Shown: positions 16,036 to 28,750 of the stretch, one piece after another
Position numbering within the stretch: the first letter of the stretch is position 1
Layout: every line of letters starts with the position of its first letter
NCBI GenBank assembly: GCA_036804445.1
Contig: DAIRSJ010000002.1
Location: 2,025-66,024 of the forward strand
From: Candidatus Egerieousia sp.
GTDB taxonomy: Bacteria; Bacteroidota; Bacteroidia; Bacteroidales; UBA932
DNA length: 64,000 bases
Direction: 5' to 3'
Notes under the pieces: model-generated
Databases searched by the model: none
What the model was told of the DNA's origin: nothing
What the model saw: only the letters and a program-made list of their open reading frames with translations
Position numbers and translations under genes: made by a program

Positions 16036-16704
16036 TTACTCCTCAAAGGCAGTGAGTCCATGCTTAATTCCAAAAGCCACACATTCGGCAATTGTTTTTA
16101 AACCGAGTTTATTTTTAATCCTGTCCTTGTTGGTCTCGACAGTACTTTGATTTATATTCATCATAACGCCTATTTCCTTATTGCTGAAGCCGTCCGTAAC
16201 ATGCTGCAAGACTTCCATCTCCTTTTTACTCAAAGAAAATGGCTTTATCTTTTCAATGTTTTTTTCCCCCCCGAACATGTTTTCCAAAATCTCTTTTCCT
16301 ATTGTATCTCCAAAAAAAAGACAATTCCCCTTGTAAACATTACAGATTGCGTCTACCACCAGTTCCGGCAAGGAATCTTTAGCTAAATAAGCTTTGGATT
16401 TTGCCAGCAACGCACGGTATATGTATCGTCCGTTTTTAAACTGCGAAAGCATCATTGTCCTGACGGAAGGGTAATTATCCCTTATTTTCTCCGCGAGTTC
16501 CAAACCGTCTTCTCCCTCTTTCATGCAAACATCAATCGTTGCCACATCTATGTCCGGGTGCTGTTTTAATTGTTCCATCGCCTCATCAGGACAGCAGGCC
16601 TGATAAACGGAACCTATTCTATCATCACATTTCAGTACCGTTTGGAGGCCTATGATGTGAAGAGGCGAATCGTCTACTATAATAAGATTAATCTTTTTGT
16701 TCAT
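16036..16704 (-). CDS. Response regulator, NarL/LuxR family
   Basis: 222 aa. The receiver domain has DD at residues 11-12 and the acceptor Asp in VATIDVCM. The C-terminal LuxR HTH reads LSKKEMEVLQHVTDGFSNKEIGVMMNINQSTVETNKDRI. Confidence 0.85.
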   Translation of the reverse strand: MNKKINLIIVDDSPLHIIGLQTVLKCDDRIGSVYQACCPDEAMEQLKQHPDIDVATIDVCMKEGEDGLELAEKIRDNYPSVRTMMLSQFKNGRYIYRALLAKSKAYLAKDSLPELVVDAICNVYKGNCLFFGDTIGKEILENMFGGEKNIEKIKPFSLSKKEMEVLQHVTDGFSNKEIGVMMNINQSTVETNKDRIKNKLGLKTIAECVAFGIKHGLTAFEE

Positions 16705-19700
16705 TACAGATACTCTATAGAAATAGTGAAAATACTCCCTTGTCCTATCTTACTTTCAACAAATATACTCTCTCCCAATTTATTTAGCAACTCATTCACA
16801 ATAAGCAGACCAAGGCCCGTCCCTCTTTCTCCTGCAGTTCCGGACATCGAATTTCCGGGGCTAACCCTGAATAAGTTTTCAACGACATCCCTGCTCATTC
16901 CGGCACCAACGTCTTTCACGGATAACAATATCCTATGATCCGAGTTTGGAAAAGACTTGGAAAAAATTAATATTTCACCTCCTCGCGGGGAGAACTTTAC
17001 AGCATTACTCAACAAATTTCTCAAAATTGTTGTAAGCAAATTCAAATCCGTATGTACCTTAATATCAGCCCGTACCGTATTATGTATTAATACTGATTTA
17101 GCTTCAGCCTGATCAGAAACTTCCCGGATTGCCGAATTGACTATTCCTTCAAGCAAACAATCACTGAAGATCGGTCTTATTATCTTCCTTTGACCCAAAA
17201 CCCACATCAACAAAGAGTCTAATAATTCTGCCGTATTGGAAGAAGCCTTGCCGAGTTCTTCCAAACATTGTCCCAATTCCACATCATTCATTCCATGAAA
17301 ATTTTCTAACAGACTATGCGTCAGGTTCCTTATACCATAAACCGGATTTTTAAGGTCATGTGAAATTATAGAAAAAAACTTATTCTTCGATTCCACTTCT
17401 TCTTTGAGTTCCATGGTCCTTTTTTCTACAACTCTTTCTAATTTTTCATTCTTTTTGCGCAAAGTTCTCTCTCTGTACGATATCAATAGATAAGTCAGGA
17501 AACAAAAACAGATTACAAACAACAGAATAAAAGGCCAAGAAAGGAGCAAGGGCGCGGCTACTCTTATCTTAAGTTCAAATTTACCCGTTCCCGCCAAAAA
17601 TCCCGCATCCGCCACTTCACCGGCCCTGCCGGGCCATTTCCCCATAGCATTAGTGCACTGAATTTCAATTGTATATGCACCGGACGGAATCTTAGTGTAT
17701 TTTGCACTTAAAGACGGATACCGCACATAATTCCATCCCTTTTCGTAACCTTTTAGCCTGTAGCGATACTCTATGTATTTTCCGGTCACATAATCGCTTG
17801 AACCAAAATTGAAAGAAATGGTATTATCCTTATGATGCAACTTCTTGATTTTTCCGTACCCGGCCAAATCAGAATACAACAAATGTTCGCCGCACCGCAT
17901 ATCGGTAACCAGAATGGACGGAAAATGAACATCCGCCAACAAACTGTCGGGATTAAAAATATTAAAGCCGGCATCACCGCCAAATGCAAGTGACCCCTTA
18001 GGGGAAATATTACGCCCGCCCACATTTAAAGAGCAGGAAGCCCTTGTCGTATAGTTATCCTGCAAAAATCCAAGATACTTATGCAATACACCGATTCTGC
18101 CAAGTTTAGCCGAATAACAATATATACCGTCATTTGTGGAAACCCACATTCTATGATGTCTATCCTGTTCTATACTCATTATTTTCAAACCTTGCATGCC
18201 TTCTACCCTCTTCCCGATGGATTTTGTATTAAAATCATTGAACCGCTCACTACCGGGAAAAGACCATATACTTGATGAAGAAAACTTGGGAATGGATCTC
18301 ACCGGAACATAATAAAGTCCTGAGCCGGTTCCAACCCACATATTACCGTATATATCTCTTTTCAAACATGTTATATTGTTATCCGGCAATGAATTTGAAT
18401 CCCATGTATATGAACCGTAACGGCGCACTTTATCGGTAGCGGGATTTATCACGTTCACTCCGGCCTCCGTAGTGCCGTACCAAATATTGCCGAAGATATC
18501 CTCGGTTATGCAACTGGCCAGTCTTGAACTAACCGAATATTCATCCTTGTTGTAAAGAAGAAAAAATTTGCCTGTTTTTTTGTTGAATATCTCCATTCCG
18601 GCCTTGGTCCCAACAAAAAACAAAGTGTCATCTATCCCGTAGCAACCTCTGACATCATTGCTCGCTATGGAGACAGCATTCTCCGGATTATTAAAATAAC
18701 TGGCTCTAAGTTTATAATTACTACTTTCCACAACATAAAAACCATCGCTAGTGCTAAGATACAGTCTCCCGTCTCCGGCATTATAGATATCATTTATATG
18801 TTTGCCGGATAACCATTTACGCCCGGCCAAATTAACTTCCTCTTCTTTTATTTTTCTCTGACGGCTAATAATATGTTTCAAAATTTCCTCCGGCATGACC
18901 TTTAAGGGTTTAATATCATCCGTAGCAAGATCATGAACATAATTTTTGCCGCCGAATTGTATATAATTTTTCCCGCCCGCACAATAAATTATTTCATATC
19001 CTGACGTTCTCATTGGCAATTTCAACTGCCCGGGTTTCAGATAATTATAATACATATTCAAAATGCCGGCATTGGGATATCCGGGTGGAATTTTCTGAGT
19101 AAACTGGACAAATCTCTTGCTTTTAAGATCACAATAACCATAATATTTGCCTCCGGCAATATAGATGCGATTAAGCGCCCTTGAAAAAGTCGGAGCGGTT
19201 GTTTTGTCGTTAGGCATCATGGAACGCTGATAATAATTTTTTCCGGTAAAGGCCATAGAAGTCCTGTCGAATTGATTGAGACCTATTCCCTCCCATGTTG
19301 CAGCCCAAAAATTTCCGTGACTGTCTTCAAAGAAATCAGAATACCAATTCGAACCGAAGAAATTTCCTCCGAACAGATCACAATAATCTCCCGGAACTTC
19401 ACTCCAGAGAGCATAACGTCTTATCTCCTTCGTTTTCTTATTGTAGACATTAAAGCCTGCATGCGCCCAAAGACCGATATATATTATGCCTTTTGAATCC
19501 TGATAAAGACATGAAACATTATCCTCGTTCACATATGGATTCCTAATGATCCCCTGTCCGTGCAACCTATACTGCCGGAGCGTATATTTCTCTTTCGCGA
19601 CGGTTTTATTATCCAGCTTCCCGTAAAACAAACGGTATTTTATATTTCCAAACCTCCCAGATGACAAATCAAGAGTATCTACCCCATTATCCTTGGTTCC

Positions 19701-20858
19701 TATCCAGAGCAATCCGTCCCTGTCCTGCATAAGCGCGGTAACATTATTCGACGACAAAGATTTGCCTGCACCCCCGTTGATATCGTGAGAGTATGATTTT
19801 ACCCTGTTGAGCAGGCGGGCATAAAGAGACACCCCGTTGTCCCCTCCAACCCATACGTTGTTGTTCCTGTCTACATAAATACAGTAAAACTCACCGGAAG
19901 CGACTGACTCAGAGCAGGAAACATCGTGCACGTATAAAATATTACCGTTCACAACGCCCCCCGTACCTGCAGCCCACAAGTTGGAATTGCGATCAACGGC
20001 AAGACGGGCATGAGATATCGGCAAGGGACCGATCGATTCAAACGACTTGCCGTTACTTCTGCAAACAGTAAGCACACTTTCAAAATCGTCGTAGGCGTAT
20101 AGATTCCCGTCCGCTTTCTGTGCGTAATTTCCTAAAGTGCGACTTGAGGGCAACAATGATAAATTCATGCTATTCCTGTCCGTCATTACCTGACTCAATA
20201 TCATCCTGCCTCCAAGCCAAATACGGCCCTTGGAATCTTCAAATATTTGTTGGTAATAATATTCACCCTCAACATTACCTATCTGATAAGTAACTCTCTT
20301 TGAGACACCGTTTTTGATGTTTATTCTCTCTAAAATTCCGTCAAAATATGCTACCCAAAGAAAACCTTTTTTATCTGCGTAAAGGGCTCTTACATAATTT
20401 CCGTGTGTCTCCGACATGTGCCTTAAAAAAGAAGTTCCTCCGGAAACAGGACGGACTTTACCCCTTATAAGTTCATTGAGTCCGTTTTTGGTCCCTACCC
20501 ATAGATTGCCATAGATATCCTCAGCTAAAGATGTTATAAAATTATCGGAAACGGAAGATGAATCCGTCGAGACCCGTTTGAAAATTTTAAAGCGCACGCC
20601 GTCATACCGGTTCAAACCGTTATCTGTTGCAAACCACATGAAACCGTATCTGTCCTGCAATATTGCATGTACGTTATTAGAACTCAGACCGTCGGAAGAT
20701 GTTATATTTATAAAACGGGCAGAGGTGTCCTTTATGAAACCCGTATTAAATACCGTCTTACTCCCGGCACTACTACTTTGCAAAGCGCCCCGGGAATCAT
20801 CAACCGCAACAAAAAGAATAAATGTGATAAGAAGATATACAATAGTGGAACGACGCAC
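16704..20858 (-). CDS. Sensor histidine kinase with a periplasmic two-component-regulator propeller / Y_Y_Y domain (no receiver, no AraC output)
   Basis: 1384 aa. It has many GLxxF/WxGT propeller repeats (e.g. DRYGFMWFATDNGLNRYDG), a Y_Y_Y-like segment (IEYRYRLKGYEKGWNYV), one TM segment, a HisKA box (FSIISHDLKNP) and an HATPase domain (GTGLGL). Its stop overlaps the regulator's start by 1 nt. Confidence 0.85.
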   Translation of the reverse strand: MRRSTIVYLLITFILFVAVDDSRGALQSSSAGSKTVFNTGFIKDTSARFINITSSDGLSSNNVHAILQDRYGFMWFATDNGLNRYDGVRFKIFKRVSTDSSSVSDNFITSLAEDIYGNLWVGTKNGLNELIRGKVRPVSGGTSFLRHMSETHGNYVRALYADKKGFLWVAYFDGILERINIKNGVSKRVTYQIGNVEGEYYYQQIFEDSKGRIWLGGRMILSQVMTDRNSMNLSLLPSSRTLGNYAQKADGNLYAYDDFESVLTVCRSNGKSFESIGPLPISHARLAVDRNSNLWAAGTGGVVNGNILYVHDVSCSESVASGEFYCIYVDRNNNVWVGGDNGVSLYARLLNRVKSYSHDINGGAGKSLSSNNVTALMQDRDGLLWIGTKDNGVDTLDLSSGRFGNIKYRLFYGKLDNKTVAKEKYTLRQYRLHGQGIIRNPYVNEDNVSCLYQDSKGIIYIGLWAHAGFNVYNKKTKEIRRYALWSEVPGDYCDLFGGNFFGSNWYSDFFEDSHGNFWAATWEGIGLNQFDRTSMAFTGKNYYQRSMMPNDKTTAPTFSRALNRIYIAGGKYYGYCDLKSKRFVQFTQKIPPGYPNAGILNMYYNYLKPGQLKLPMRTSGYEIIYCAGGKNYIQFGGKNYVHDLATDDIKPLKVMPEEILKHIISRQRKIKEEEVNLAGRKWLSGKHINDIYNAGDGRLYLSTSDGFYVVESSNYKLRASYFNNPENAVSIASNDVRGCYGIDDTLFFVGTKAGMEIFNKKTGKFFLLYNKDEYSVSSRLASCITEDIFGNIWYGTTEAGVNVINPATDKVRRYGSYTWDSNSLPDNNITCLKRDIYGNMWVGTGSGLYYVPVRSIPKFSSSSIWSFPGSERFNDFNTKSIGKRVEGMQGLKIMSIEQDRHHRMWVSTNDGIYCYSAKLGRIGVLHKYLGFLQDNYTTRASCSLNVGGRNISPKGSLAFGGDAGFNIFNPDSLLADVHFPSILVTDMRCGEHLLYSDLAGYGKIKKLHHKDNTISFNFGSSDYVTGKYIEYRYRLKGYEKGWNYVRYPSLSAKYTKIPSGAYTIEIQCTNAMGKWPGRAGEVADAGFLAGTGKFELKIRVAAPLLLSWPFILLFVICFCFLTYLLISYRERTLRKKNEKLERVVEKRTMELKEEVESKNKFFSIISHDLKNPVYGIRNLTHSLLENFHGMNDVELGQCLEELGKASSNTAELLDSLLMWVLGQRKIIRPIFSDCLLEGIVNSAIREVSDQAEAKSVLIHNTVRADIKVHTDLNLLTTILRNLLSNAVKFSPRGGEILIFSKSFPNSDHRILLSVKDVGAGMSRDVVENLFRVSPGNSMSGTAGERGTGLGLLIVNELLNKLGESIFVESKIGQGSIFTISIEYL

Positions 20859-20970: not shown

Positions 20971-22413
20971 ATGGCATTTACTAATAACGTTATGATAGTC
21001 CGTCAGGAGCTTTTGGCAAAACTGGTGGAAATGTGGAACAGGGGAAAACTTGTTGAGGAAATTGACCGTCTTCCTATCCAACTCAGTCCAAAGGGGGAAA
21101 AAGTGCGCGGCAGATGCTGTATTCATAAAGAAAGGGCAGTCTGGAAATACAAAAGTTTTCCTTTAATGGGGTTTGACATGAATGATGAGACGGATGAATT
21201 GACCCCTCTTTCCTGGTACGCAAAAAAGGCATTGGAAAGAAAGGACACTTCCAAGGAAAATTTGGTATGTGTTGTTGATGAGGCTTGTTCATCTTGCGTT
21301 CAAGTTAATTATGAGATTACAAATCTTTGCCGCGGATGCGTTGCAAGGATGTGCTATATGAACTGTCCAAAACACGCCATCAACTTCAACAAGATGGGTC
21401 AGGCAGAGATTGATCATGAAAACTGCATAAGTTGCGGAAAATGTTTTCAAAGTTGTCCGTATCATGCAATTGTCTATATACCCGTACCTTGTGAAGAATC
21501 GTGTCCGGTAAAAGCCATAAGCAAAGATGAGAACGGTATTGAACATATAGATGAAAGCAAGTGCATATATTGTGGAAAATGCATTAACGCATGTCCTTTT
21601 GGAGCCATATTTGAGGTCTCCCAGATTTTTGATGTTTTGCAAAGATTAAGGAACAAACAGGAGATGGTTGCAATTGTGGCGCCTTCTATTCTTTCACAAT
21701 TCAGCACTTCGCCGGAAAATGTCTACGGAGCCATTAAATCACTTGGATTTAAGGATGTTATAGAGGTTGCGGAAGGTGCTATGAGGACTACATCCACGGA
21801 AGCTGAAGAATTAAAAAGAAAAATAGCCAACAAGGCTCCGTTTATGACAACAAGTTGCTGCCCCGCATGGGTAGAGCTTGCAAAAAAACATATTCCGGAA
21901 ATGCTGCCGCACCTTTCAACTGCCGGTTCTCCAATGTACTACACCGCATTGATTGCAAACAAAAAATATCCTAACGCGCAAATAGTTTTTATTGGTCCAT
22001 GCCTTGCAAAAAAGAAAGAAACAAGGGATGACCCTAATATTGCTTTTGCTATTACGTTTGAAGAACTTGGCTCAGTGTTCACAGGACTTGGGATTGACTT
22101 GGAAAAAGTGACTCCGTTTAAACCTGCCGTAAGTTCTTACAAAGCAGCCCACGGTTTTGCCCAGGCCGGCGGAGTTATCGGTGCCGTAAAATACATACTT
22201 AAAGATGAGCAGCTAAATGCAATGCAGGTTACCAACCTGGACAAGAAAAATGTAAGCATGCTAAAAATCTACGGAAAAACAGGCAAGGCACCGTCTCCTT
22301 TCATAGAAGTAATGGCATGTGAAGGTGGTTGTGTAACAGGATCTTGCATCTATAATGACAAGCAGACCGCACAGCGTCTTTTAAAAGAGGCTCTGGCTAA
22401 AATCAAAGATTAA
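20971..22413 (+). CDS. Monomeric [FeFe]-hydrogenase-like protein with 4Fe-4S ferredoxin domains
   Basis: 480 aa with two CxxCxxCxxxCP ferredoxin motifs. H-cluster motifs are present: TSCCPAW (L1), GPCLAKKKE (L2) and MACEGGCVTGSC (L3). Confidence 0.8.
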   Translation: MAFTNNVMIVRQELLAKLVEMWNRGKLVEEIDRLPIQLSPKGEKVRGRCCIHKERAVWKYKSFPLMGFDMNDETDELTPLSWYAKKALERKDTSKENLVCVVDEACSSCVQVNYEITNLCRGCVARMCYMNCPKHAINFNKMGQAEIDHENCISCGKCFQSCPYHAIVYIPVPCEESCPVKAISKDENGIEHIDESKCIYCGKCINACPFGAIFEVSQIFDVLQRLRNKQEMVAIVAPSILSQFSTSPENVYGAIKSLGFKDVIEVAEGAMRTTSTEAEELKRKIANKAPFMTTSCCPAWVELAKKHIPEMLPHLSTAGSPMYYTALIANKKYPNAQIVFIGPCLAKKKETRDDPNIAFAITFEELGSVFTGLGIDLEKVTPFKPAVSSYKAAHGFAQAGGVIGAVKYILKDEQLNAMQVTNLDKKNVSMLKIYGKTGKAPSPFIEVMACEGGCVTGSCIYNDKQTAQRLLKEALAKIKD

Positions 22414-22468
22414 TTTTGCAGTTGTGACCGGATTATATACCTTTGCGGTTGCAAATTGAAAGCAAAGC

Positions 22469-22567
22469 ATGAACATTAAAGCGCAAATATTCAATCTTTA
22501 TTATCTTGCCAATCAGACGGCAGGGACTCAGCGCGTTTCTCTTATGTCCATGCGAATGCATCGTTAA
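22469..22567 (+). CDS. Candidate leader peptide MNIKAQIFNLYYLANQTAGTQRVSLMSMRMHR (three Met codons among the last seven sense codons)
   Basis: An ATG sits in an A-rich unstructured context. In-frame Met codons are at 22544, 22550 and 22556. The stop codon lies in the loop of the first of three downstream hairpins, which end in a terminator upstream of metY. Confidence 0.3.
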   Translation: MNIKAQIFNLYYLANQTAGTQRVSLMSMRMHR

Positions 22568-22603
22568 GATGCTTTAAAGTAACCCTTATTAAATTCATAA
22601 GGG

Positions 22604-22633
22604 CCTGTACCAAAGAAGGTACGGGTCTTTTTA
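22604..22633 (+). terminator. Intrinsic terminator / attenuator in the metY leader
   Basis: Stem CCTGTACC/GGTACGGG (one G-U pair) with loop AAAGAA, followed by TCTTTTTA. It lies 94 nt upstream of the metY ATG and 190 nt downstream of the hydrogenase stop. Confidence 0.6.
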
Positions 22634-22692
22634 TTTACAAAAGCGCCACATTTTTTTCACGCGCTTAAATTCAACAAGTAAAAAAAATAATA

Positions 22693-22706
22693 TCTGTCGC
22701 GACAGA
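22693..22706. repeat. Perfect palindrome TCTGTCGCGACAGA, copy 2 of 3
   Basis: Read directly. Its context is AATAATATCTGTCGCGACAGAAAAATTTTTAAAAAAAAGATATG, and it ends 20 nt before the metY ATG. Confidence 0.9.
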
Positions 22707-22726
22707 AAAATTTTTAAAAAAAAGAT

Positions 22727-24004
22727 ATGTCAATTTATAAGTTTGAAACTTTACAGGTACATGCCGGCAACGTTCCGGATCCCACAACAGGAGCAAGCGC
22801 AACACCTATTTATCAAAGTGCTTCATTTGCTCTTAAAAATGTAGAGGAAGGCAGAAAGATTTTTGCCCATGAAGAGGACGGTTTTACCTACACAAGGATT
22901 GTCAATCCAACGATTGATGTCTTTACAAAAAGAATTGCGGCTCTGGAAAACGGCCTTGACGCCGTTGGAGCGGCATCAGGCATAGCAGCGCAATGGCTTG
23001 TAATGCAGGCACTTTGCAAGGCAGGAGATAACCTGATTAGTTCCATTTCACTTTACGGCGGGACGTACGGACAATTTAAAAATACTCTTCCGCAATTTGG
23101 AGTTAATGTTAAGTTTTGCTCATGTGAAGAGCGCAGTGAGGTTGAATCTCTTATTGATGAGAGGACAAGAGGAATATATGTTGAGACAATAGCAAATTCA
23201 AACTTATCTGTTCCGGATTTTGACATGCTTGCGCAAGTGGCTGCCAGCCACCATATTCCGCTAATTGCAGATAACACGGTAGGATGCGGAGGATATTTGT
23301 GCCGGCCAATAGAAAAAGGAGCAAACATTGTAACGCATTCTGCAACAAAGTGGATATGCGGTCATGGAAATACAATTGGAGGGGTCGTAGTAAACGGAGG
23401 AAATTTTGACTGGCATTGCGGAAAATTTCCAAAGTTCACTGAGCCGCAGCCTATTCTGGGAGGCAAGAGTTATTTGGATAGATACGGTAAGTCCGCGTTT
23501 AGCGCACAGCTTATGTTTGAGGGACTTACAAATTTTGGAGGCTGTCTGTCACCGTTTAATGCATTCATGCTTTTGACCGGCGTTGAAACTTTATCTTTAA
23601 GAGTTCAAAGAGTATGCGATAACGCACTGGCTCTTGCACATTGGCTGGAGAAAAATCCAAAAGTTGCAAAAGTTTGTTATCCCGGATTGGAAAGTCACCC
23701 TTCTCACAAAAATGCGGTAAAATATTTAAGCCGCGGATTTGGAGGAATTATATTTGTAGACCTTAAAGCCTCTAAAGAGCAAACGGCCAAAGTCGTAGAA
23801 CGCTTTAAACTTTTCACGCTGCTGGCAAATCTGGGTGACAATAAATCATTGGTTACACATCCGGCAACTTCTACTCACTCGGAACTGTCGGAAGAGGAGC
23901 TTAATAAAGTCGGGATCACGGGAGGCACTTTGCGTCTTTGCATAGGAATAGAGAACATAGAGGACATTATTGCAGACTTTGACAATGCACTTCAAATCAT
24001 CTAG
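22727..24004 (+). CDS. metY: O-acetylhomoserine sulfhydrylase (aminocarboxypropyltransferase)
   Basis: 425 aa. It is a PLP-dependent Cys/Met-metabolism enzyme with the PLP-lysine motif HSATKW. Confidence 0.9.
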   Translation: MSIYKFETLQVHAGNVPDPTTGASATPIYQSASFALKNVEEGRKIFAHEEDGFTYTRIVNPTIDVFTKRIAALENGLDAVGAASGIAAQWLVMQALCKAGDNLISSISLYGGTYGQFKNTLPQFGVNVKFCSCEERSEVESLIDERTRGIYVETIANSNLSVPDFDMLAQVAASHHIPLIADNTVGCGGYLCRPIEKGANIVTHSATKWICGHGNTIGGVVVNGGNFDWHCGKFPKFTEPQPILGGKSYLDRYGKSAFSAQLMFEGLTNFGGCLSPFNAFMLLTGVETLSLRVQRVCDNALALAHWLEKNPKVAKVCYPGLESHPSHKNAVKYLSRGFGGIIFVDLKASKEQTAKVVERFKLFTLLANLGDNKSLVTHPATSTHSELSEEELNKVGITGGTLRLCIGIENIEDIIADFDNALQII

Positions 24005-24027: not shown

Positions 24028-25098
24028 ATGGAGAAAAGAGTCCTTAAATACAACAAATCTTTTAAGCTGGAGAGCGGAGAATCCCTGCCGGAACTGGAGA
24101 TATGTTACCATATATCAAAAGATTTCCCCAAGGAGAGCAAAGTCATTTGGATAACTCACGCGCTTACAGCAAATTCAGACCCGTCCGAATGGTGGAATAC
24201 TCTGGTTGGAAAGGGAAAGTTTTTTGACCCGCGCAAGTACACTATTGTCTGCGCAAATTTGCTCGGAAGCTGCTACGGCTCCACCGGTCCCGCCTCCGTA
24301 AACCCCAAAACGGGTAAGCCATATCTGCTTGGTTTTCCAAAGGTTACGGTAAGGGATGAAGTTAATTTTTTGGAGTTATTGCGCAATCACCTTGGAATCA
24401 AAAACATAGACTTAATTATTGGCGGCTCGGTTGGAGGATATCAGGCCATAGAGTGGAGCATCATGTATCCCGATGTAATCAAAAATGCAGTGTTCATTGC
24501 AACCGGTGCGCGCGTTACACCTTGGGAGACGGCATTTAATGAGAGCCAAAGAATGATACTGTATGCGGACGAATCATTTGCAAATGAAGAGAGTATAAAA
24601 GGCGGTCTCAAGGGAATGGGAGCCGCACGCACAGTCGCGCTTATCTCTTACAGAAGCTGCAAGGGATACAATTCAACGCAGCAGGACGCAGATTCCGATT
24701 CCGTTTGGGAACACAGGGCATCGTCATACCAGCGCCATCAGGGAGAAAAATTAGAGAAAAGATTCAATGCGTATTCTTATCTTGAAATGGTCAATCTTTT
24801 TGACAGTCATAATGTCGGCCGCGGACGCGGAGGCGTGGAAAAGGCTTTGGCAAAAATTAAAGCAAAAGTTTTGTGCATTGGCATTGACAGCGATATTTTA
24901 TTTCCGTGGAGTGAACAAAAATTTATTGCAGAACATACCGGCTGCCGCGGCAAAAAAATCAAAAACACAAATAACAGGCACGGTAAATTTATTAAGATAA
25001 AATCAGATTTTGGTCACGACGGTTTCTTATTGGAATACAAACAAATACAAGAAGCTGTCGGGAAAACATTTAAAAATATTTTTTATGCAGGTACTTAA
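24028..25098 (+). CDS. metX: Homoserine O-acetyltransferase
   Basis: 356 aa alpha/beta hydrolase with the nucleophile elbow GGSVGG and C-terminal GHDGFLLE. There is a Lys/Asn-rich insertion just before the catalytic His. Confidence 0.85.
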   Translation: MEKRVLKYNKSFKLESGESLPELEICYHISKDFPKESKVIWITHALTANSDPSEWWNTLVGKGKFFDPRKYTIVCANLLGSCYGSTGPASVNPKTGKPYLLGFPKVTVRDEVNFLELLRNHLGIKNIDLIIGGSVGGYQAIEWSIMYPDVIKNAVFIATGARVTPWETAFNESQRMILYADESFANEESIKGGLKGMGAARTVALISYRSCKGYNSTQQDADSDSVWEHRASSYQRHQGEKLEKRFNAYSYLEMVNLFDSHNVGRGRGGVEKALAKIKAKVLCIGIDSDILFPWSEQKFIAEHTGCRGKKIKNTNNRHGKFIKIKSDFGHDGFLLEYKQIQEAVGKTFKNIFYAGT

Positions 25099-27511
25099 AT
25101 TCGGTGGCAGCTCCGTTGCAAATGCAGAAAACATAAACAGAGTGATTGCCATTGTAAAAAAGAAAATCAAGAGAGATAAAACCGCAGTGGTTGCATCGGC
25201 AATTAGCGGGGCAACAGATGCGCTGATTCAAATAGGAAAGAGGGCACAACTGCAGGATGATTCTTATATCCTGCAGATTGAAGCATTATACCAAAGACAT
25301 ATTGAACTGATAAAAGAACTTGTTCCGGAGGAGGACTCCGCTCCGATAAAGAGCGAGTGCAAAGAGTTATTTGGAAAACTCAGAGAAATTTGCAACGGCG
25401 TCTATTTGCTAAAAGAACTTAGCCCGCTCAGTCTGGACCATATAATGAGTTTTGGAGAGATGCTCTCAACCAAAATTATCAGCTCCAAGCTTAAATCCCT
25501 GAACATAAGCCACGTATGGAAAGATTCCCGCAGCCTTATCAAGACTGAGATATCAGCCGGGGTTAATGTTATCAAAAAAGAAGAGACTGCAAATAACATT
25601 GAAAAATATTTCAATTCCGCACAAAATAATTTGTATATCCTTCCCGGCTTTATTGCATCGGATGACCAGGGGAGAACTACAACATTGGGGAGAGGCGGTT
25701 CCGATTACACAGCCTCTATTTTAGCCGTTGGAACACAGGCGAGAGTTCTGGAGATCTGGACAGATGTAAACGGCATGATGACGGCGGATCCACGCATTGT
25801 ACCGGAGGCCAAACCTATAAGAAACATATCATATAAAGAGGCATTGGAGCTCTCACATTTTGGGGCAAAAGTCGTATACCCCCCTACCATACAACCTGTT
25901 GTTAAACAGGGCATTCCCATATATGTAAAAAACACTTTTGACCCGGAAGACGGCGGCACTGTAATAGAAAAAAATCCGCCGGAGGGGATTGGAAAAATCA
26001 GAGGCATTTCCAGCTCTGACAAAATTGCTCTGCTGAGCATGGAGGGAAGCGGAATGGTTGGCGTACCCGGCTACTCCAGCAGATTGTTTGATGTACTTTC
26101 TCAAAACAATATCAACATAATTCTCATTACTCAGGCATCATCGGTTCACACAATGTGCATTGCAATACCTGAGTCTGACGCAGCAAAAGCAAAGAAGGCG
26201 GCGGATGAATTATTTGCCTATGAAATCTCTCTTGGAAAAGTAGATCCGCTAAAAGTTGAGAAAGGTTTCTCTATTATATCACTGGTCGGGGACGACCTTA
26301 AAAATCAGAGCGGTGCAAGCGGCAGAATGTTTGACGCATTAGGCCGTGAAGGAATAAACATCCGCGCAATTGCACAGGGTTCATCAGAAAAAAATGTTTC
26401 CACGGTTCTTCATACGGAAGATGTTAAAGCTGCAATCCGCGCCATCCATAAAGAATTTTTCAGCGGAAAAGGGAGAAGAATTAATTTGTTCTTTGCAGGG
26501 TGCGGAACAGTTGGTTCGGCACTGATAGATATGATAACCAGACAGCATGACTTCATATCCGATCAGCTAGGCAAAGATTTGGTTATCTGCGGATTATCAG
26601 ACAGTAAAAATTATATTACGGCTCGCGACGGGGTAAAAATCACTGCAGGAAAAAAGGAAAATGACAACACACGGGAACTGTCAAAAGACGATATCAAAAA
26701 AATTCTTGCAGCCGGAGAGAAAAATTCAGGCAGCAACTATATGGAAAAAATATGCGATCTGAATCTAAGTAATTCCATATTTGTGGACTGCACCTCAAGT
26801 AAATCAATTGCAGGTACATACGTGGATTTGTTCCATCACAAAATTGCAGTAGCAACCTGCAACAAAATTGCAAATTCACTCTCTTATGATTCATATAAAG
26901 AGCTATTTGATGTTGCAAGAACCGAGGGGACAAAGTATAAATATGAAACAACCGTTGGAGCCGCACTGCCCGTTATAAGCACTGTAAAACAGATTGTTAA
27001 CAGCGGGGATAAAATAAGGAAGATAGAAGGGATACTGTCGGGAACTCTAAATTATTTATTAAGCAATTACAGTGGAAAAGATTTTTCAGCGCTGGTGGAG
27101 AAGGCGAGAAAACTTGGTTACACGGAACCCGACCCTAGAACAGATTTAAGCGGAACGGATGTACTCAGAAAATTTTTGATTTTAAGCAGAGAGGCAGGAT
27201 TCAAACTGGATATCAATGATTTAAACTATAAGCCTTTCTTTGAGGGAAAATATGAACCCCGCTTAAAGAAACTTTATGAAGAGGCGACAAAGGCGGAGAA
27301 AAAATTAAGATTTATTGCAAAACTGGATCCTAAAATTTTTATCGGAATAGAGGCGGTGGATGCAAAACATCCGTTCTACGGCGTGGAGGGCAGTGATAAC
27401 GCAATCATCTTAACCACAGAATTTTATCCGCAAGGTATTATGATACGCGGAGCAGGCGCCGGAGCAAGACAGACTGCCTCCGGATTGTTCAATGATATCC
27501 TGTCCATTTAA
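25085..27511 (+). CDS. thrA: Bifunctional aspartokinase / homoserine dehydrogenase
   Basis: The start is taken at MQVLKFGGSSVANAENI (25085), because the tracked ORF start at 25010 lies inside metX. It contains aspartokinase, ACT repeats and an HSDH domain (NLFFAGCGTVGSALI). It overlaps metX by 14 nt. Confidence 0.85.
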   Translation: MQVLKFGGSSVANAENINRVIAIVKKKIKRDKTAVVASAISGATDALIQIGKRAQLQDDSYILQIEALYQRHIELIKELVPEEDSAPIKSECKELFGKLREICNGVYLLKELSPLSLDHIMSFGEMLSTKIISSKLKSLNISHVWKDSRSLIKTEISAGVNVIKKEETANNIEKYFNSAQNNLYILPGFIASDDQGRTTTLGRGGSDYTASILAVGTQARVLEIWTDVNGMMTADPRIVPEAKPIRNISYKEALELSHFGAKVVYPPTIQPVVKQGIPIYVKNTFDPEDGGTVIEKNPPEGIGKIRGISSSDKIALLSMEGSGMVGVPGYSSRLFDVLSQNNINIILITQASSVHTMCIAIPESDAAKAKKAADELFAYEISLGKVDPLKVEKGFSIISLVGDDLKNQSGASGRMFDALGREGINIRAIAQGSSEKNVSTVLHTEDVKAAIRAIHKEFFSGKGRRINLFFAGCGTVGSALIDMITRQHDFISDQLGKDLVICGLSDSKNYITARDGVKITAGKKENDNTRELSKDDIKKILAAGEKNSGSNYMEKICDLNLSNSIFVDCTSSKSIAGTYVDLFHHKIAVATCNKIANSLSYDSYKELFDVARTEGTKYKYETTVGAALPVISTVKQIVNSGDKIRKIEGILSGTLNYLLSNYSGKDFSALVEKARKLGYTEPDPRTDLSGTDVLRKFLILSREAGFKLDINDLNYKPFFEGKYEPRLKKLYEEATKAEKKLRFIAKLDPKIFIGIEAVDAKHPFYGVEGSDNAIILTTEFYPQGIMIRGAGAGARQTASGLFNDILSI

Positions 27512-27550: not shown

Positions 27551-28750
27551 ATGAAAGTAGCAGTTGTAGGAGCAACCGGACTGGTTGGCAGAAACATGAT
27601 AAAAGTTCTGGAAGAGAGAAGATTTCCCGTCACGGAACTGATTCCGGTAGCTAGTGAAAAATCTGTAGGAAAAAAGGTAAAGTTTAACAAAAAAGAGTGG
27701 AGCATTGTCTCCCCTGCTACAGCCGTTTCCATGCAGCCGGCCGTAGCCATTTTCTCCGCAGGAGCAGATGTATCCAAAGAATGGGCTCCAAAATTTGCGG
27801 CTGTAAAGTGTTATGTAATAGACAATTCCTCCTATTGGAGAATGGACAAAAAAAAGCGGCTTGTAATTCCGGAAATCAACGCAGATGTAATCAAGAAGAG
27901 TGATTACATTATAGCAAACCCCAACTGCTCCACAATTCAAATGCTGGTTGCAATTTCAGACTTGCACAAAAACTATAAAATCAAAAGAATTGTGGTTTCC
28001 ACTTATCAGTGTATCACGGGGACCGGCAAAAAGGCCGTAGATGAGCTGGATGCAGAGAGGAGTGATCAAATCGGCAATAGTGCCTGCAGCGGCGTCAGAA
28101 CAAAGTCATCTGATTGCAGCTCAAGCTGCTACTATATTCCGCGCGGCACAGAGGGGAGAAAAACCACTACTGCTTATCCTTATCAAATAGACCTCAACCT
28201 TCTTCCTCATATAGACAAATTTCTCCCTTCCGGCTATACAAAAGAGGAGATGAAAATGGTTGATGAGACTCATAAAATAATGAGGGACAATAACATTAAG
28301 ATCTCCCCCACCACGGTGAGAGTTCCCGTAATAGGAGGTCACGGAGAATCTGTAAATCTGGAATTTGCAAGGCCGGTAACTCTTAAGGACGTCTATAAAA
28401 CACTTAGAAAAACTAAAGGAGTGATCTTGCAGGACAACACTCTTCCAAAAGGATGCAGCAAAAAAAATCCCTACGGACAGCAGAACAAAGCTATTGGAGC
28501 AAAGCTTCCAAAATATTTCAACACAAGTTCAAAAACCGCGGCGGGAAAAAAATACCTTGAGCAGCTTGCCTACCCCATGCCAATTTACGCCAAAGACAGA
28601 GATGAAGTTTTTGTGGGAAGAGTCCGCCTGGACCCAACGGTCAAAAGCGGAATTAATCTTTGGTGCGTATCGGACAACTTGCGCAAAGGAGCTGCAACTA
28701 ATGCCGTACAGGTGGCGGAGGTACTTCTTGCCAAGAAATATATCAAGTGA
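27551..28750 (+). CDS. asd: Aspartate-semialdehyde dehydrogenase with two lineage-specific insertions
   Basis: 399 aa with N-terminal GATGLVG, active-site NPNCSTIQ (Cys) and GGHGES (His). Extra segments lie at about residues 171-207 and 298-339. Confidence 0.85.
   Translation: MKVAVVGATGLVGRNMIKVLEERRFPVTELIPVASEKSVGKKVKFNKKEWSIVSPATAVSMQPAVAIFSAGADVSKEWAPKFAAVKCYVIDNSSYWRMDKKKRLVIPEINADVIKKSDYIIANPNCSTIQMLVAISDLHKNYKIKRIVVSTYQCITGTGKKAVDELDAERSDQIGNSACSGVRTKSSDCSSSCYYIPRGTEGRKTTTAYPYQIDLNLLPHIDKFLPSGYTKEEMKMVDETHKIMRDNNIKISPTTVRVPVIGGHGESVNLEFARPVTLKDVYKTLRKTKGVILQDNTLPKGCSKKNPYGQQNKAIGAKLPKYFNTSSKTAAGKKYLEQLAYPMPIYAKDRDEVFVGRVRLDPTVKSGINLWCVSDNLRKGAATNAVQVAEVLLAKKYIK

Follow-up and report, generated by a model that had tools for sequence, protein, structure and literature searches.

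A candidate methionine-sensing leader-peptide attenuator family upstream of metY and metX in uncultured Bacteroidales

The closest described systems are the leader peptides of the enterobacterial amino-acid biosynthesis operons, trpL, hisL, pheL, thrL, leuL and ilvL, each encoded by a short open reading frame (ORF) at the head of its operon; in the classical layout, as in trpL, codons for the end product lie near the end of the ORF, the stop codon falls between the arms of a hairpin and a terminator precedes the first gene. We know of no such leader for methionine (Met). Accounts of methionine gene control name repressors (MetJ and others), S-adenosylmethionine (SAM) riboswitches and T-boxes, and are not known to include a leader-peptide attenuator; no methionine leader peptide or attenuator was found in open-access PMC and bioRxiv full text, although mentions may exist among the short ORFs that transcriptome papers list. 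Here we describe a candidate in a 64,000-nucleotide (nt) stretch of DNA from Candidatus Egerieousia sp. (contig DAIRSJ010000002.1; hereafter the window, whose first letter is position 1), where a 313-nt gap (22414-22726) separates a hydrogenase-like gene from metY. We think it rather probable that the leader ORF of this gap reports methionine supply through the speed of the ribosome at its Met codons and so sets transcription into metY-metX-thrA-asd.

The locus shares with the classical attenuators a short leader ORF before an amino-acid biosynthesis operon, but differs from them in several respects. The sensed residue would be Met, with which translation also begins; the hosts belong to the Bacteroidales, an order without Shine-Dalgarno sequences; the promoter is of the TAnnTTTG type; many copies are apparently leaderless; and an antiterminator is a candidate in only one group of leaders (class B, below). 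A second likeness is to the polycysteine short ORFs of mycobacteria, which, as described in an extract of bioRxiv 10.1101/834739, are leaderless, rich in the cognate codon, placed upstream of sulfur amino acid operons and found at several loci under one shared signal. According to the same extract, however, those ORFs sense Cys, occur in Actinobacteria and have a translational output, whereas here Met is the residue and terminator-like hairpins follow; there is no sequence relation between the two. The SAM-I (S-box) riboswitch is the functional counterpart that occupies the same place before metY in other families of the order, but there an RNA aptamer senses SAM directly, and no ORF is needed. 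Met-specific T-boxes of Firmicutes likewise report the charging of tRNA-Met to met genes by a choice between terminator and antiterminator, but read the uncharged tRNA by RNA-RNA contacts without a ribosome. From the same phylum, the Bacteroid-trp leader motif of Rfam is a presumed leader-peptide attenuator, but with Trp codons and before trp genes. By a narrower margin than for the single locus, we favour the view that the element is the first described family of Met-sensing ribosome-mediated attenuators: a mostly leaderless mini-gene ending M-R-M-H-R-stop, with its last Met codons in the 5' arm of a hairpin over the stop, which, in an entire family of uncultured Bacteroidales from guts and digesters, would have replaced SAM-I before metY or metX and would have non-identical Met- or Met/Cys-rich counterparts in Marinilabiliaceae and other Bacteroidales.

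In the window, the leader ORF (22469-22567, plus strand, as are all features of the gap) has 32 codons and a TAA stop (22565-22567), encodes the peptide MNIKAQIFNLYYLANQTAGTQRVSLMSMRMHR and ends M-S-M-R-M-H-R-TAA. Its three in-frame Met codons at 22544, 22550 and 22556 (span 22544-22558) are named here M-7, M-5 and M-3, counted back from the stop. The last codons overlap hairpin 1 (22558-22572), in which GCATC (22558-22562) and GATGC (22568-22572) enclose the loop GTTAA and the stop codon lies within the loop. Hairpin 2 follows (22583-22603; CCCTTAT at 22583-22589, a 7-nt loop, ATAAGGG at 22597-22603) and is kept in three relatives of the window leader (L002, L081 and L187); next comes an intrinsic-terminator-like hairpin (22599-22636) with the core arms CCTGTACC (22604-22611) and GGTACGGG (22618-22625) and then a T run, for which a terminator consensus scan gave a 13-pair stem at 22599-22630 followed by the T run. 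An earlier note on this DNA, made from the letters alone, had placed the gap, the ORF, its Met codons, both hairpins and the terminator at positions that agree with the sequence. It had read the arrangement as attenuator-like with Met as the sensed residue, and the comparative data below support this layout, with the switch itself still hypothetical. Taken alone, the window is a weak case. A 32-codon ORF with three ATGs is weak evidence, and three terminator-type hairpins in 2.2 kb are not above the 2.4 +/- 1.6 found in shuffled sequence. The folding energy of the gap beat 100 of 100 shuffles (z = -3.56). What lifts the element beyond chance is its recurrence in other species, with 70 exact copies of its core, and a frame bias of 210/6/2 in the ATG triplets before that core.

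A DNA search of 40 relatives matched the full gap in only one near-identical genome, whereas 13 other members of the genus matched it over no more than 24-38 nt around 22544-22573, at 90-100% identity. The conserved part is a 23-nt core at 22550-22572, ATGCGAATGCATCGTTAAGATGC, that is, the codons M-R-M-H-R-stop and the 3' arm of hairpin 1. As the word ATGCGAATGCATCGYTAAGATGC (Y at position 15) it is present exactly in 70 loci of a collection of 185,579 species genomes, all but two of them titled as Bacteroidales-type metagenome bins, with labels that include Ca. Egerieisoma, Ca. Egerieousia, Ca. Cryptobacteroides and Bacteroides sp. CAG:709. The other two (L039 and L070), filed under Eggerthellaceae and Acutalibacteraceae, are probably mis-binned contigs, as their leaders match those of the Bacteroidales bins L003 and L087. 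Within the window's genus, 45 of 72 genomes hold the core at up to three mismatches (41 exact and five variant places), and one more copy, in G023, has a 1-nt deletion in the core. In a sample of 61 genomes, taken as the window's own family because two matches share contig coordinates with genus members, nine had the core at up to two mismatches, and among 401 genomes sampled evenly over the order G000 alone had the core. Four three-mismatch matches of the order scan (L171-L173 and L175) lie within coding genes and were set aside as chance. Once identical copies were collapsed, 74 distinct leaders remained; they fall into 42 clusters, which diverge by more than 30% over the 60 nt before the core.

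The nucleotide sequence of this 60-nt stretch is not conserved, but its reading frame is. ATG triplets in frames 0/1/2 number 210/6/2 in the 74 distinct copies and 108/5/2 in the 42 clusters, while stop triplets number 8/123/24 and 3/69/21 respectively, and the homologous frame is open in all 74 copies. Comparison of the copies shows that the leader ORF is conserved as a frame and has an excess of in-frame Met codons, the last two or three of which are placed within, or directly ahead of, the 5' arm of the conserved hairpin whose loop contains the stop. Of the 1062 residues that separate the first Met from the core, 102 are Met; M-5 and M-3 are retained in all mismatch-tolerant matches but one (G462, with Thr at -5), and M-7 is present in 25 of 42 clusters. 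The keeping of the mini-ORF and its Met codons in relatives had been set beforehand as a check, and both are kept, often in a far Met-richer form than in the window, as in MNKSPHIIQITSMPSMAMGMMGMCIMRMHR; other leader peptides are MKKETHINISTILPIICKVNGIVSISMMASMNMMSMRMHR and MQGANHIIGAMTMRMHR. Many of the peptides have a common x-[H/Y/F]-I motif near residue 6.

One alternative is that the open frame is a by-product of a translation-independent RNA element, a small riboswitch or a site bound by protein, in either case made up of recurring AUGC/GCAU words. The core is conserved at the nucleotide level, most synonymous positions included, hairpin 1 shows a compensatory change, and AUGC-GAAU-GCAU could form an alternative 4-base-pair (bp) hairpin that shares its GCAU with hairpin 1, all of which an RNA element would explain. 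Such an element would, however, leave unexplained why the frame bias of both ATG and stop triplets reaches 60 nt upstream into nucleotides that are unconserved, why an in-frame start codon follows the promoter box and why the ORFs of stop-loss variants close in frame a few codons further on. Nor does any Rfam family match. At the gathering score, Rfam 15 gave no match in the whole 64 kb, and at E<=10 the region 22380-22760 gave six weak matches, none to a SAM riboswitch or a T-box and none to the Bacteroid-trp motif; the best were the trpB motif (24.1 bits, cut-off 59) and Thr_leader (16.4 bits, cut-off 55), both mostly on the terminator. A known riboswitch over the gap, which the earlier note had named among the results that would refute its reading, was thus absent from these searches, and we regard a translation-independent element as very improbable. 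Three leader peptides searched against Pfam and NCBIfam at E<=10 matched no family, such short peptides being hard to match.

The element accompanies metY or metX and not the hydrogenase-like gene. In a tblastn search with the window MetY and MetX proteins, the gene after the leader was metY in 51 and metX in 19 of the 74 distinct copies; three of the remaining copies are cut by the contig end and one had no gene in the 455 nt examined. Of the 72 genus genomes, 48 have metX, and 46 of these 48 carry the element (45 with the core, together with G023), whereas it was found in none of the 24 genomes that lack metX. Of the two metX-bearing genomes left over, G460 has a contig that ends before the upstream region, and G426 (C75, L217) has a different met operon, with another Cys/Met pyridoxal phosphate enzyme, a metX of only 48% identity and no leader; its operon adjoins a divergently transcribed Lrp/AsnC-like gene upstream. 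From leader stop to gene start the distance ranges from 32 to 300 nt. A search with the window MetY protein returned two close relatives and otherwise distant phyla, and so gave no unbiased set of upstream regions. In seven genus members (G008, G011, G429, G443, G445, G454 and G468) metX matched the window's protein in two pieces (residues 1-188 and about 190-344) lying about 87 nt apart in one open frame, which would be an insertion of about 29 residues in a sub-lineage.

This association bears on the simplest alternative, namely that the ORF arose by chance and that the hairpins merely terminate the upstream hydrogenase-like gene. Six public RNA runs contained only 6-19% of the sampled words, and four of them gave contigs over 22200-22510 and 22858-23027 and none between, a coverage too thin for starts, ends or read-through. 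The first of these contigs spans the 3' end of the hydrogenase-like gene into the leader ORF, so that read-in transcription is possible, unless the contig comes from DNA in the library. The comparative data contradict this explanation, as the element stands beside metY or metX in 74 distinct contexts and no metX-less genome of the genus has it. The element also has its own promoter box, and transcription of metY must cross the terminator, there being, on reading the sequence, no TAnnTTTG box between the terminator and metY. We consider a chance ORF the least probable of all the explanations weighed here, and close to negligible.

The promoter box of the gap is the candidate -7 box of the primary Bacteroidetes sigma factor, TAccTTTG (22438-22445), with a candidate -33 element, TTTG (22415-22418), 19 nt 5' of it, both read from the sequence; an extract of PMC7366714 describes such -33 TTTG and -7 TAnnTTTG motifs for promoters of the Bacteroides primary sigma factor. 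In the 200 nt upstream of the core, 40 of 42 clusters have a TAnnTTTG box, compared with 15 of 42 in the 200 nt on the downstream side. The box is followed after only 4-9 nt by the first in-frame ATG or GTG in 22 of 39 clusters, and judging from this spacing these leaders would be leaderless or nearly so; in the window the ATG comes 23 nt after the box. In Bacteroides thetaiotaomicron only about 3.7% of 5' untranslated regions are shorter than 10 nt, according to the same extract of PMC7366714.

Variants of the core separate the demands on the peptide from those on the RNA. A compensatory change of the hairpin 1 stem to GCAAC/GUUGC, which turns His into Gln and the peptide end into MRMQR*, is present in G428 and G527, whose leaders are otherwise very different; it may be a single event. 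The last Arg codon of MRMHR* is CGT, CGC or CGG in several genomes, including G467 and G470; in G480 and G533 the last codon is CTT (Leu), giving MRMHL*, and G533 also has a synonymous change of CGA to CGC. G462 has Thr at M-5 (TRMHR...). The stop in the loop has become CAA in G002 and G462 and TCA in G491, and is lost through the 1-nt deletion in G023; hairpin 1 is intact in all four, and their ORFs still end in frame, 3-10 codons later. This pattern of variants indicates that selection acts on the Met codons at -5 and -3 and on the hairpin from the G of the last Met codon onwards, and not on the exact peptide. Arrest peptides are a known means of sensing a small molecule, as with TnaC and tryptophan or plant CGS1 and SAM, and it is possible in principle that a C-terminal M-R-M-H-R stalls the ribosome at the stop when Met or SAM binds the exit tunnel, which would set the RNA fold. 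The end of the peptide and the stop codon are the most conserved part of the element, and the stop sits in a hairpin loop. That end nevertheless varies (MRMQR, MRMHL, TRMHR), in four lineages the stop is displaced downstream by 3-10 codons with the hairpin intact, an arrest peptide has no need of Met enrichment in the variable part, and the change of His to Gln falls exactly at the compensated stem change, which points to a constraint on RNA rather than peptide. We therefore hold an arrest peptide to be improbable, if a shade less so than the translation-independent element considered above.

We infer instead that the leader probably acts by a methionine type of ribosome-mediated attenuation, with a switch between terminator and antiterminator. 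The ribosome reaches about 12 nt past the first base of the A-site codon. Transcription would begin at the TAccTTTG promoter of the gap. When charged elongator tRNA-Met is scarce, the ribosome would wait at M-5 or M-3 (22550, 22556); with its A site there, the 5' arm of hairpin 1 would be held inside the mRNA channel of the ribosome, leaving the 3' arm and the RNA that follows unpaired, and transcription would read through. When Met is plentiful, the ribosome would reach the TAA (22565) and cover or release the hairpin region, and the terminator at 22599-22636 would end the transcript. With the A site at the stop, both arms of hairpin 1 would be covered, while at M-7 or further upstream hairpin 1 could form. 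In folds of the window computed with the ribosome masked, placing the A site at M-5, at M-3 or at the stop abolished hairpin 1, which was kept with the A site at M-7. A trp-like scheme is favoured because the geometry of codons, stop and regions 1 and 2 resembles that of the trp leader.

Whether a terminator follows each leader was examined with a lenient scan (minimum of 5 bp in the stem and of five U in 9 nt). A separate downstream hairpin and U run is present in 15 of 42 clusters, compared with 57 of 840 shuffles. One or both of hairpin 1 with a U run and a separate hairpin with a U run occur in 39 of the clusters, and neither in three. In the window class (the window, L002, L081 and L187) a separate strong terminator is present, nearly identical in the three relatives.

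A candidate partner for the terminator was seen in class B, the 15 leaders whose metY begins MS[NQ]Y[KR]FDTLQVRAG. RNAalifold gave here hairpin 1, a hairpin within the ORF and a terminator-like AUCUUG(G)GC...GC(N)CAGGGU followed by UUUUCAU, and in alignment A1 hairpin 1 and the terminator are 97.6% paired, as against 32-47% with the partners slid, with one pair changed on both sides. A scan for conserved helices found that CUAAGAU, made up of the loop of hairpin 1 and the first bases of its 3' arm, pairs with AUCUUGG of the terminator 5' arm (95.2% paired, 17-58% when slid). With this helix as 2:3, hairpin 1 as 1:2 and the terminator as 3:4, a trp-like set can be drawn on the class B alignment, and the pairing of CUAAGAU with AUCUUGG would complete the scheme set out above. 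Hairpin 2 of class B is 94.7% paired but still 81.3% after a slide of +1, and is ambiguous. Two further pairings were noted in class B. The conserved His-Ile codons, UCAUAUC, early in the ORF are complementary to GAUAUGA within the Met run (7 bp, 96% paired, 14 sequences), and Met-Met dicodons (UGAUG) are able to pair with the 5' arm of hairpin 1 (CAUCG).

Several candidates for an antiterminator in the window were considered and set aside. Hairpin 2 overlaps only the lower 5 nt (AAGGG) of the extended terminator stem, so that the 8-bp core and the T run are untouched, and its GUA:UAC extension is not conserved in L081 or L187. The pairing of the ORF segment CUCUUAUG with CAUAAGGG has 8 bp in the window, 6 bp in L081 and is absent in L187. 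Separately, a Rho-loading site after the leader is judged unlikely: the stretch poor in G covers only about 20 nt, and over another 20 nt beyond it G outnumbers C.

A number of observations count against the attenuation proposed here. The window copy itself is Met-poor, with three Met codons and the start, and its terminator forms in every ribosome-masked state. Masked folding, the conserved-helix scan and duplex tests found no antiterminator for the window-class terminator, as the earlier note had also failed to see one by eye; helices touching the terminator are only 5-8 bp long and are not conserved among the three relatives, and for pairing of the hairpin 1 3' region with the terminator 5' arm, 46-77% of shuffles were as good in this class. 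Over 15 clusters the same test gave 4-77%, and so no general support. The class B candidate shows no covariation, one of its sides being invariant, and its duplex energy was reached by 7-38% of shuffles. Hairpin 1 is itself terminator-like. It is followed by a U run in 35 of 42 clusters on the lenient scan; 21 of 42 clusters allow 1-3 more contiguous pairs in its stem; the 20 nt after GATGC hold 45.5% T, 21.7% C and 11.8% G, a skew that the following 20 nt lack; and hairpin 1 with this U-rich tract looks like a weak terminator or pause site. If it is a terminator, stalls at Met codons upstream, such as those of the class B Met runs and others, would lead to termination in starvation, which is the wrong sign for a biosynthetic operon. 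In the simplest models the same would hold for any Met runs far upstream, where early stalls let hairpin 1 form. In L033 and L049 the metX start follows the leader stop by only 32-34 nt, which leaves no space for a separate terminator. The genomes are, moreover, all metagenome bins.

Some of these points would sit well with the most serious alternative, in which the same translated Met-codon sensor has a post-transcriptional output and the stalled ribosome changes how translation of metY or metX begins, or protects the mRNA from decay. The close spacing of leader and metX in L033 and L049 and the missing antiterminator of the window class would both fit, as would the 22 of 39 leaders that look leaderless in the manner of the mycobacterial Cys short ORFs. 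In those polycysteine ORFs, according to the extract of bioRxiv 10.1101/834739, stalled ribosomes unmask a downstream ribosome-binding site. On the other side, a strong canonical terminator stands between leader and metY and is conserved in the window class, terminator-like hairpins are enriched after the leaders, as counted above, and no conserved pairing of the leader with the metY start region was found, over stop-to-start distances that range so widely. We consider a post-transcriptional output unlikely, but well ahead of the arrest peptide and of the other alternatives discussed above, and continue to favour attenuation of transcription.

The place of the element within the order was assessed from 30 metY loci in 30 genomes assigned to 30 different families. 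In ten of the 30, all from other families, a SAM-I riboswitch (RF00162) lies directly upstream of metY on the strand of the gene, whereas none of ten leader-bearing loci has one, and none was found in G000 (82% complete). Among the 20 loci without a riboswitch, three (L231, L238 and L239) have other Met-rich short ORFs 230-240 nt before metY, and Met-codon leaders may be a recurrent solution in Bacteroidales. The ORF of L231, MIYQEAKISNLPLSGFASTWCSSLFMMMGMMCSMMMSC, runs from about 237 to 120 nt before metY and ends ...FMMMGMMCSMMMSC*. The word of its Met run recurs, again before metY, in three Marinilabiliaceae/Breznakibacter bins (L255-L257), one variant of which, MKQNEAHINIFPSTGFASTLCSSSFMMMGMMCSMMMSC, has an H-I-N start motif, and the N-terminus of L256, MKQNEAHINIF, resembles the H-I motif of the window's family. 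ORFs of the L231 type can form a 10-bp helix of UUGCGCRUCG with CGAUGCGCAA, with one change from G-U to A-U between copies. L238 and L239 have Met/Cys-rich ORFs before a sulfhydrylase gene, ending ...MMCCMMCCCNYSW (...MRKAMMCCMMCCCNYSW*) and ...MAVMHCMMTGCLIQFCCFIW respectively; for L238, an exact-word scan matched only the ORF itself and a DNA search of three other genomes of its family gave no match.

A conserved Met-codon leader would fill a gap in the known control of methionine genes. If the proposal is correct, Bacteroidales that lack Shine-Dalgarno sequences use ribosome-sensed attenuation on leaderless transcripts, and the leader would offer a compact natural part for Met-responsive expression in gut Bacteroidales. 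The sensor would also have to separate the supply of initiator from that of elongator Met, as Met starts every protein, a problem that no classical attenuator faces. How a sensor that itself starts with Met reports a shortage of Met, and where the ribosome must stall for the right sign, bears on the coupling of transcription and translation in this phylum.

On the 5' side the gap adjoins the Fe-only hydrogenase-like gene (20971-22413). On its 3' side a row of four genes begins with metY (22727-24004, plus strand), of the O-acetylhomoserine sulfhydrylase family (Pfam PF01053, Cys_Met_Meta_PP, E = 6.4e-119), whose product scores 530.5 bits against TIGR01326, above the curated cut-off of 495.1. 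It is followed by a metX-like homoserine O-acetyltransferase gene of the alpha/beta hydrolase type (24028-25098, plus strand; Pfam PF00561), a putative metX labelled from its N-terminal pattern and gene order, without a family model. Next are a bifunctional aspartokinase/homoserine dehydrogenase gene (25010-27511, plus strand; Pfam AA_kinase, ACT and Homoserine_dh), in which 25010 is the start of the longest ORF and the true start is probably near 25090, and asd, for aspartate-semialdehyde dehydrogenase (27551-28750, plus strand; Pfam Semialdhyde_dh and Semialdhyde_dhC).

Further structures are present in the gap. Within the ORF a hairpin of CTTGCC, an 8-nt loop and GGCAGG (22505-22524) appears in the minimum free energy (MFE) and centroid folds and in every ribosome-masked state, and is a possible pause hairpin; class B leaders also hold an analogous hairpin within the ORF. 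Another, of AAGCGC, a 14-nt loop and GCGCTT (22641-22666), is present in the MFE and centroid folds, and a palindrome read from the sequence, TCTGTCG/CGACAGA (22693-22706), lies 20 nt 5' of the metY start. In leaders of other classes (L004, L006 and L008) a hairpin stands at the same spot before metY, with a 3' arm, (T)CTGTCGGGA, that is related to this palindrome. In L004 the hairpin before metY closes an insert of about 85 nt (CCCGACAGG...CCTGTCGGGA), which has no Rfam match. Beyond the hydrogenase-like gene, and divergent from it, the window holds a gene of 1384 residues (16704-20858, minus strand) with Reg_prop repeats, Y_Y_Y, HisKA and HATPase_c, the sensor part of a hybrid two-component system of the Bacteroidetes type.

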